From Escherichia phage A51.2: a stretch of 64,000 nucleotides of DNA. The stretch lies in sequence record ON286973. One strand, written 5' to 3'. This document shows, piece by piece, positions 48,282 to 51,298 of this stretch; the first letter of the stretch is position 1; every line of letters begins with the position of its first letter. The notes below the pieces were generated by a model. It was not told where the DNA came from, made no database searches, and saw nothing but the letters and a program-made list of their open reading frames with translations. A program made the translations under genes and the position numbers.

Positions 48282-48343
48282 TTTTCAGATCTCCTTATAC
48301 AAAAATGCCCCACCCTTTCGGGCAGGGCTATGTTAACTAGATG

Positions 48344-49570
48344 TTAAAAAGGGATGTCATCATCAAAGGTATACTGTGCTGGATTCTGATCCATTGGGTC
48401 ATCTTCCTCATCATTTACAGGAGGAGCGTCTACAGTGTTTTGCTGTGGAGCTGCTTCCTGTTTGGCAGCCTGGGGTTCTTGATAGTCAGTTGACCCAGCA
48501 CCGTTCTTGATCCAATCGTACAACGGTTCAGCCAGATTAGTCAAGACATCTTTTGCTTCTGCAGTAATTGCCGCTGCAAAATCATCAACTTTCGTTTTCT
48601 TGTCAATACGGCGACAAGCGTTCAACACCGCATTACCGACACTGGCACCTACTTCATCTTCAGTTCGGTTGGTGGCTTGAGCATACTCTTTCTTAAGCTC
48701 AATGGTGACTACGTGCAGTGTTTTAGCCACGCCCAGTGGGTCGTCTACCTTAAACCCGCGATCCAGGATGATCTGCAACGCATTGATGCTATGCCCCGTT
48801 TCCACACCGATAGGGTCGTAAGAGGATTTACGCTTGCCACCGGAGCCTTGAGTGCCGTTCTCTGCCTTAGGGGGATAGGCTTTGAAACCGCTGATAATGT
48901 TTCCGGTGTCTTTGTCAACAATGGCTGCAACACGACCACCTACCACCAGGTCTTTAAGCTGCTCATCAGTTACAACCATAGCACCTTCGCCAATCTTGTG
49001 GTCATTAACAGTAACCACGTTGCCAACAATCTGAGTCACATCGCCATAGATGCGTAAAACGTCCTGATTGGCATTCTGCTGAGGTTTCTGCTTCTGGCCT
49101 TGTGATTGTGCACCTTGTTGCTGTTTTTGCTGCTGAGTCGCTGCTGGAGCCTCTCCTGCACCCAGCTTGACCATCTTAGCCAGTGAGCCTTTGTAATAGG
49201 TCTTACCGTTATGCTCGTTTGCCTTCAAAGGGATATTTACGATCCATCCCGGCGTTACGGTTTCCCACTTGTCATCAATTTTAACAGAGACAGAGTCTTG
49301 ATGACCAGGTTTAAGCAGCTTATCACCCATGCTGATCCAAACTTCTTCACCACCTTGAAGCAGGTTATCAGAGGAATCCAGTTCAGAAATCAGTAAAGAG
49401 ATGGTGTGGCTGGATTCAATTTTCTTACCTTGCCACACAGTGGTTTTAATACCTGTTGTAGGATCAGCACCTTTGATAGGCTTGATGCTGACACGTTTAA
49501 TCATGCCGTGAGCCAGTAAAACAGTTTCACGCGGATTCATCGGGTTAGCGAATTGTTGAATAACGCTCAT
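48344..49570 (-). CDS. putative ssDNA-binding-type replication protein with host-SSB-like C-terminal tail
   Basis: 408 aa; Gln-rich linker; C-terminus ends DDDIPF (E. coli SSB ends DFDDDIPF); N-terminal fold not recognised. Confidence 0.55.
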   Translation of the reverse strand: MSVIQQFANPMNPRETVLLAHGMIKRVSIKPIKGADPTTGIKTTVWQGKKIESSHTISLLISELDSSDNLLQGGEEVWISMGDKLLKPGHQDSVSVKIDDKWETVTPGWIVNIPLKANEHNGKTYYKGSLAKMVKLGAGEAPAATQQQKQQQGAQSQGQKQKPQQNANQDVLRIYGDVTQIVGNVVTVNDHKIGEGAMVVTDEQLKDLVVGGRVAAIVDKDTGNIISGFKAYPPKAENGTQGSGGKRKSSYDPIGVETGHSINALQIILDRGFKVDDPLGVAKTLHVVTIELKKEYAQATNRTEDEVGASVGNAVLNACRRIDKKTKVDDFAAAITAEAKDVLTNLAEPLYDWIKNGAGSTDYQEPQAAKQEAAPQQNTVDAPPVNDEEDDPMDQNPAQYTFDDDIPF

Positions 49571-49935
49571 TATTTGTCTCCTTGTTCTTCGTTAGTGTTT
49601 GCCGTGTGTGCAAACCCTGCTTGAATTAATTTGTCCTGAACTTGAGCCAACAGCCCCATTGCAAAACTTGTGGTCCCAGAGAGGGCCATCAGCATATCTC
49701 GTTGTTGAGCTACCCAACCTAAGGCATAGTCCAAACGACGATATTTTTCTTCTTCACGCAGAGCTTGAAATAATTGTTCAGCCTCTGGTTGTTGTGTGAG
49801 CTCCTGAAGTCTTCCCATGAAAGAAGAAAGCACTAGCAGAAGAGACACTTGATCTTTACTTAACCCTAAGAAAAATTCTTGAGGTTGTTCTTGCTCGTTC
49901 ATCGCAACCGACGCTTGATCGTTCATTTGTTCCAT
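49570..49935 (-). CDS. hypothetical protein
   Basis: 121-aa ORF abutting the SSB-tail gene. Confidence 0.45.
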   Translation of the reverse strand: MEQMNDQASVAMNEQEQPQEFFLGLSKDQVSLLLVLSSFMGRLQELTQQPEAEQLFQALREEEKYRRLDYALGWVAQQRDMLMALSGTTSFAMGLLAQVQDKLIQAGFAHTANTNEEQGDK

Positions 49936-51235: not shown

Positions 51236-51298
51236 TGCTGTGGTCCCCTTTCGTTTTGATAGGGCCATTATAGTAGGCCCTATGACTGTTGTCAAGCA

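Follow-up and report, generated by a model that had tools for sequence, protein, structure and literature searches.

A protein of 408 residues, encoded on the minus strand of the window (the whole 64,000-nt stretch of phage DNA analysed here), is in our estimate, with a probability of roughly 70%, the replicative single-stranded DNA (ssDNA)-binding protein (SSB) of an rV5-like (Vequintavirus) phage, in a previously undescribed architecture that would contact DNA through a predicted OB fold. It is this architecture that is new: a cryptic OB fold with an optional second barrel is joined to a conserved helical domain without known relatives and to a C-terminal tip identical to that of the host SSB. 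The kind of function, that of a phage SSB with an acidic, Phe-terminated tail, is already known, and some database records already guess "SSB". Our search of the literature on the rV5/Vequintavirus SSB, Bas48 escape mutants and phage SSB tails found no description of the protein, and the rV5 genome paper, which lists a ligase, a polymerase and helicases, never mentions an SSB.

The gene and its expression signals

The sequence-only reading had reported a 408-aa open reading frame ending in DDDIPF and left its strand unstated. The frame is real and runs on the minus strand, from an ATG at 49570-49568 to a TAA at 48346-48344 that directly follows the C-terminus ...NPAQYTFDDDIPF; the plus-strand reading of the same interval was ruled out, its translation being riddled with stops. 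The stop codon of the upstream gene (TAA, 49572-49570) shares one base with the start codon, giving the overlap TAATG, and this suggests that the two genes are translationally coupled. The terminator-like hairpin behind the stop has a GC-rich stem of 9 bp, and in rV5 an endonuclease cassette sits between the SSB-like gene and this hairpin. The upstream 121-aa protein is helical and carries the label "putative SSB" in one GenBank record (JLBYU08). As a candidate conserved partner, it shows no similarity to the protein encoded at the equivalent place in a phi92-like phage. Also on the minus strand, some 1.7 kb ahead of the SSB-like gene, positions 51267-51295 contain a perfect match to the sigma-70 consensus (TTGACA, 17 nt, TATAAT; 12/12). 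It may be the counterpart of the rV5 promoter P220, which is annotated at a comparable distance upstream of gp209, and could drive a transcription unit that ends at the terminator after the SSB-like gene.

Table 1. Coordinates of the SSB-like gene, its predicted protein segments and flanking signals in the window
Feature	Position	Strand	Details
Upstream 121-aa gene	49570..49935	minus	rV5 gp210; PHROG 7310 ("unknown function"); putatively coupled through TAATG
Shine-Dalgarno AAGGAG	49583-49578	minus	Strong, 7 nt 5' of the ATG; sequence read directly
Complete CDS, 408 aa + stop	48344..49570	minus	From the ORF list
Residues 1-140, predicted N-terminal SSB-type OB-fold domain	49151..49570	minus	Long beta hairpins; pLDDT 85-93
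Residues 141-169, Gln-rich low-complexity linker, predicted disordered	49064..49150	minus	pLDDT 26-35; length varies through indels among homologs
Residues ~170-236, small five-stranded barrel (predicted)	48863..49063	minus	Short helix between strands 3 and 4; pLDDT 82-88
Residues 237-250, predicted disordered			pLDDT below 50
Residues ~251-357, four-helix bundle (predicted)	48500..48820	minus	pLDDT about 90-95; most conserved part of the family
Residues 358-402, P/Q/A/E/D-rich linker, predicted disordered	48365..48499	minus	pLDDT 28-44
Residues 403-408, DDDIPF tip	48347..48364	minus	Identical to the E. coli SSB C-terminal hexapeptide; P and F invariant; pLDDT below 50
Intrinsic-terminator-like hairpin with T-run	48300..48328 (hairpin 48328-48307)	minus	GCCCTGCCC GAAA GGGTGGGGC; directly 3' of the stop

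Family and existing annotation

The protein is 100% identical to proteins of phages APECc02, nomo and naswa and 99.3% identical to rV5 gp209; its equivalent in Bas48 is bas48_0087. It matches PHROG 4477 ("unknown function") over its full length (phrog_4477, E 7.9e-174, residues 1-408 against profile positions 1-393 of 393), and a Pfam search returned nothing at E<=1 except an irrelevant 12-bit match. Nearly all database records label its homologs "hypothetical", while a few depositors wrote "putative single-stranded DNA-binding protein" (e.g. JLBYU08). Short relatives of 295-310 aa, some of them recorded as SSBs, occur in phi92-like phages; their alignment to the window protein takes in its N-terminal as well as its C-terminal part, and they end in EEPPMDFDDDIPF. 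Searched against 1.84 billion representative proteins, a helical-domain profile recovered 130 clusters, and most of the distant family members come from metagenomes.

Two database irregularities were seen along the way. About 20 "Campylobacter phage" records (host C. jejuni; MG065635, MG065644, MG065690, MG065677 and others) hold a protein 98-99% identical to the E. coli rV5-like version, which looks like a labelling or contamination issue of that deposit and not a true host jump. In the Salmonella phage NINP13076 (Seunavirus, locus L011 1150-1584), the annotation gives a family member as an "SSB" of 144 aa beginning within the helical domain, probably through a truncated gene call or because the gene is interrupted.

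Predicted domain architecture

Using AlphaFold2 with a 31-sequence alignment, we obtained a model consisting of three folded units separated by disordered segments (Table 1). The best structural matches of the N-terminal domain are bacterial-type SSBs, on whose OB fold the model can be superposed, and the Foldseek matches, themselves weak, are of the same kind. No sequence link of this domain to any SSB family was found with Pfam, nor with phmmer and the family profile against PDB sequences, which align the tail only. Hence, the earlier statement that the rest of the protein does not resemble an OB fold stands at the level of sequence, where Pfam has no match, and fails at that of predicted structure; the structure prediction that had been proposed as a check returned both an SSB-type OB fold at the N-terminus and a second small OB-like barrel, and the Gln-rich linker noted earlier is real and predicted to be disordered. 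We predict from the model that the N-terminal region is an SSB-type OB fold that is invisible to sequence methods. In the model it departs from the classic OB topology in lacking the long helix between strands 3 and 4. Aromatic positions of this domain conserved across the wide family (H55, W78, W102 and position 120) form a pattern that fits what base-stacking residues of an SSB would look like.

The barrel in the middle probably represents a minimal second OB fold, because its strand-helix order fits and because of two sets of alignments: Foldseek aligns 65-71 columns to the OB domains of IF1 and the proteasome with a probability of 0.97-1.00, and RPA (3e0e_A) aligns over 63 residues at 1.8 A in the full-length search versus 79 residues at 3.0 A with the N-terminal domain alone. 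We infer the step from these matches to the barrel, since the tools do not report the aligned ranges. The barrel is missing from the short-form relatives (~275-305 aa).

The helical domain retains G255, G259, H260, N263, K283, H286, T289, K293, Y296, G308, G312, N317 and A318, of which positions 283, 286, 289, 293 and 296 would, judging by their spacing, lie on one side of helix 2. It has no Pfam or PDB sequence match, its profile against the PDB gives noise only, and it has no relative of known function. Conservation within the protein peaks in this domain, so DNA binding may not be the family's core activity.

The C-terminal tip

The match of the last six residues to the tip of E. coli SSB, which had first drawn attention to the protein, is exact: E. 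coli SSB (PDB 1eqq_A) ends in ...NEPPMDFDDDIPF (...PPMDFDDDIPF) and the window protein in FDDDIPF. The alignment of the family profile with 1eqq_A is confined to the tail, and a tblastn search of the whole window with E. coli SSB finds the tail of the 408-aa protein as its sole match (E 0.003). No other window ORF of at least 60 aa has an acidic end closing in xPF.

P407 and F408 are invariant in 31 homologs with identities down to 30%, the consensus end being DFDDDIPF. In the wider family, a survey of tails covering 124 of the 130 clusters found an [ILVMF]-P-F end in 82 representatives, other aromatic tips on acidic tails (such as ...DDLPW, ...GLDF and ...APF) in 22 and a peptide following the tip in two; the remaining patterns, in 18 of the 124, include proteins with one extra residue after PF and others that stop just past the helical domain, the latter of which may be fragments. 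The invariance of P407 and F408 and the prevalence of the [ILVMF]PF end show that the tip is not a product of chance. Several relatives end in PPMDFDDDIPF, i.e., the last 11 residues of E. coli SSB.

Because the TAA (48344-48346) directly follows DDDIPF, the terminal carboxylate is free in the window allele, which thus combines a disordered linker with a DDDIPF tip bearing a free carboxylate; the rV5 allele does not. The tail is acidic, terminates in Phe and belongs to a phage with a family-A polymerase and a primase/helicase, so that by analogy it could serve to bind partners. The exact identity with the host tip, reaching PPMDFDDDIPF in relatives, argues for host partners, and the T7-like replisome, by analogy with gp2.5, argues for phage partners; the two are not mutually exclusive.

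Exchange of domains within the family

A metagenomic relative of 327 aa (P0172) is a natural chimera in which a gp2.5-type domain takes the place of the N-terminal domain and is joined to the helical domain. Its residues 30-171 belong to the T7 gp2.5 SSB family (PF21265, 51 bits against a cutoff of 27; phrog_112, E 1.3e-20), residues 197-292 correspond to the helical domain (hhalign probability 96.8%, E 2.5e-10), with the motifs G..GH..N and VGNxVLxAC, and the protein ends in ...DDDEEIPF. The presence of a recognised SSB domain in this position is the strongest indirect argument that the N-terminal domain of the window protein would be its ssDNA-binding part. The union of the same C-terminal module with a gp2.5-type domain likewise argues that the helical domain and tail are an accessory module of SSBs.

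In the alignment, the homologs P0033-P0042 appear as gene mosaics, several types of C-terminal domain occurring among them, and P0040-P0042 have a different N-terminal domain while sharing the linker and middle barrel with P0006-type proteins. The apparent breakpoints of these mosaics lie near disordered linkers, which is consistent with the exchange of whole domains.

Gene neighbourhood and the search for another SSB

In rV5, JLBYU08 and Bas48 a methyltransferase gene is followed in turn by those for the primase/helicase and the family-A DNA polymerase, by about ten small ORFs and the 121-aa gene, and then by the SSB-like gene; the primase/helicase of the rV5-like phage is T7-like. The short relative of a phi92-like phage is encoded a few ORFs past the polymerase gene, and a relative of 276 aa, from a metagenomic contig of 45 kb, comes after a Toprim primase, a gene of 699 aa and one resembling T7 gp5.9.

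The curated and complete Bas48 genome has annotated helicase, primase/helicase, polymerase, ligase and exonucleases and no annotated SSB. Probing it with E. coli SSB, four further phage SSB scaffolds, T7 gp2.5, T4 gp32 and a small HMM of the canonical OB domain brought up nothing but the tail of the SSB-like gene. A second cryptic SSB of equal divergence could escape these searches.

A peptide beyond the tip and a neighbouring HNH endonuclease

Alleles other than that of the window present what is a more unexpected observation than the SSB assignment. In rV5, gp209 is annotated with 423 aa: the stop codon is replaced and the frame reads on as IPF-APVGLQYGKSRIHAL before a stop, 15 aa past IPF (locus L001 13225-13272), as it does in many relatives. 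The HNH homing endonuclease gene of rV5 (gp208, L001 13244-13867) starts inside the extension codons in another frame, as does the endonuclease ATG of Mt1B1_P17 (L008 about 2501-2995). In phiEB49 (L013 1428-1781) an HNH endonuclease lies downstream of an extended SSB gene, and bov11CS3 represents a third allele in which the gene keeps its own stop and the endonuclease follows 8 nt downstream (L007 398-976). The window allele has neither endonuclease nor extension. Taken across these four phages, an HNH homing-endonuclease family is found directly 3' of SSB genes in different phage subfamilies; at an identity of at least 80%, the endonuclease occurs in about 50 Vequintavirus records. It is plausible that the conserved tail-coding DNA is its homing site. 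A group I intron around the rV5 endonuclease was rejected, there being no Rfam match and no room for one. Production of the extension by the inserted endonuclease was also rejected, because mEpX2, Vibrio K443, NINP13076, Vibrio 1.038.O and K279 have the extension on SSB genes with no endonuclease downstream.

The peptide itself, of 12-16 aa with the pattern AP[IVM][GT]L[QPM][YFH]...[IML][HY]x[ILFM], comes after DDDIPF in phage SSBs built on four or more unrelated scaffolds (loci L001, L008, L009, L010, L011, L012, L013, L014 and L015). Among these are E. coli-type SSBs, as in the lambdoid mEpX2 and Vibrio K279, and other scaffolds represented by the Vibrio K443 and Vibrio 1.038.O proteins, the family member of the Seunavirus NINP13076, mEp013 and phiEB49. 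A tblastn search with tail plus extension reached 160 phage records at a query cover of at least 80%, and of 5,426 complete E. coli genomes at least 273 have a full-length mEpX2-type extended ssb, which their annotation calls just "ssb". We found no paper with the string "DIPFAP" and no description of the extension in the literature.

Codon differences were counted in nine extended genes, compared in 36 non-independent pairs. They were mostly synonymous in the first seven extension codons, AP[IVM]GLQ[YF] (129 synonymous, 67 non-synonymous), a pattern that suggests selection at the peptide level in the first half of the extension; the corresponding counts are 133 and 15 for the tail codons of the same genes and 40 and 186 for the rest of the extension. 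Pockets that receive the SSB tip bind the free carboxylate of the last Phe, and by analogy the extension should therefore mask or re-target the tip. As rV5 is viable with its 15-aa extension, a free tip is not indispensable.

Proposed function and alternative explanations

We propose that the predicted N-terminal OB fold would coat ssDNA at the phage replication fork, aided in the long form by the second small OB-like barrel on its flexible Gln-rich tether. The four-helix domain, to go by its conservation and the position of the gene, could mediate self-association or contact with the T7-like primase/helicase and polymerase. The disordered acidic tail with its DDDIPF-COOH end may act in the manner of the bacterial SSB C-terminus, as E. 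coli SSB and T7 gp2.5 would suggest: it could dock into the SSB-tip pockets of host genome-maintenance proteins, onto basic patches of the phage replisome (compare T7 gp2.5 on gp5 and gp4), or both, and may fold back onto the DNA-binding surface when DNA is absent.

The sequence-only reading had left a choice between an atypical phage SSB and a decoy. The first of these is favoured by the predicted OB folds, the conserved tail, the position in the replication module, the failure to find another SSB and the gp2.5-type chimera, and the expression signals and the SSB labels given by a few independent annotators are in keeping with it, whereas nothing specific speaks for the second. As a decoy, many copies of the host SSB tip would sequester or redirect host SSB partners (e.g. 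RecQ, ExoI, PriA, RecO and Ung), and DNA coating would be inessential. The identity of the tip with that of the host, extending to PPMDFDDDIPF in relatives, would suit such a role, all the more since a phage with its own polymerase and primase/helicase could use any acidic tail, so that exact host identity hints at host targets. However, a decoy calls for a tip without a DNA-binding body, and here the body has one or two predicted OB folds closest to SSBs; some 350 structured residues would be needless, and in many alleles the tip is masked by the extension. In P0172, moreover, the C-terminal module stands behind a domain recognised as a gp2.5-type SSB. With an OB-fold protein conserved at a fixed position in the replication module of genomes that have no other detectable SSB, we regard the decoy as distinctly unlikely.

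The predicted OB fold is also compatible with a specialised replication or recombination accessory working on ssDNA coated by host SSB, whether a loader like PriB or T4 gp59, a RecO-like mediator or a gp2.5-like annealing protein. Such proteins are, however, poor matches for the C-terminal part: readers of the SSB tail such as RecO and PriA do not usually carry the tail themselves, PriB has none, a disordered linker with an acidic tip is a hallmark of SSBs, and the structural matches to RecO span just ~70-90 residues, which is the OB part. We thus consider an accessory role unlikely. OB folds are, moreover, functionally promiscuous, and tRNA-synthetase anticodon-binding and translation-factor OB domains are among the structural matches, so that the OB-like domains might instead bind RNA, protein or glycan, the tail being a convergent acidic/aromatic end with no link to SSB biology. 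Convergence of this kind sits badly with a host-type tip conserved in a family of ~130 clusters and reaching PPMDFDDDIPF in several members, with the conserved place in the replication module and with the existence of the gp2.5-domain chimera, and is in our view very improbable.

A replicative SSB remains our preferred reading. A further idea, which we put forward tentatively and hold to be rather doubtful, is that the helical domain and acidic tail constitute a portable "replisome adaptor" carried by interchangeable OB domains, of the rV5 type or, as in P0172, of the gp2.5 type. DDDIPF would then be a host mimicry that brings in host SSB partners, and the optional post-tip peptide AP[IVM]GLQ[YF]..., present in rV5 and on numerous unrelated phage and prophage SSBs, would act as a natural switch by which the tip is masked or re-targeted. 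Were this so, tail-free and tail-masked alleles of ~99% identical phages would differ in their use of host proteins.

Significance

The SSB assignment would give PHROG 4477 a function and fill the SSB gap in the replisomes of rV5-like and phi92-like phages, which are common on E. coli, Salmonella and Klebsiella, are present in phage-therapy collections and include BASEL phages such as Bas48. Since the tip can be borne by a scaffold that escapes sequence-based recognition as an SSB, searches for conserved C-terminal tips may find further cryptic SSBs. In the natural allele series the tip is free, free with a homing endonuclease gene behind it, or masked by the 15-aa extension, and this lays its role directly open to genetics. 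The introduction of a 2026 preprint describes phage SSBs as reported triggers of bacterial defence systems such as retrons; going by that introduction, an unannotated SSB family may be relevant to studies of sensing and escape.

Comparison with known systems

With bacterial-type SSBs (E. coli SSB, PF00436, and those of many temperate phages and plasmids) the window protein has in common an N-terminal OB fold (here predicted), a disordered low-complexity linker and the DDDIPF tip. It differs from them in that its OB domain has no detectable sequence homology to theirs, in the addition of a small barrel and a conserved 105-residue four-helix domain between OB fold and tail, and in its length of 408 aa, which is more than twice theirs.

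T7 gp2.5 (PF21265, PHROG 112) serves as the SSB in a replisome that, like that of rV5, pairs a family-A polymerase with a fused primase/helicase. Its OB fold, like the predicted one at the N-terminus of the window protein, escapes detection when its sequence is compared with bacterial SSB. The acidic tail of gp2.5, in which the C-terminal Phe is essential, makes contact with the polymerase and helicase of the phage and ends in ...DGDF where the window protein has DDDIPF. The window protein itself does not match the PF21265 and PHROG 112 profiles, which within the family are matched only by P0172, and T7 gp2.5 is not among its top structural matches. A helical bundle domain and a second barrel, both present in the window protein, are lacking in gp2.5.

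The DUF2815 phage proteins (PDB 4klk and 4jg2) give weak, non-significant Foldseek matches (E 0.05 and 0.2) and have no sequence relationship to the window protein. Homology to RPA and other multi-OB SSBs (RPA32, STN1 and baculovirus LEF-3) is likewise not detectable; these are eukaryotic or viral heteromers with winged-helix C-terminal domains, whereas the window protein combines its predicted OB folds with a four-helix bundle and the tip of a bacterial SSB.
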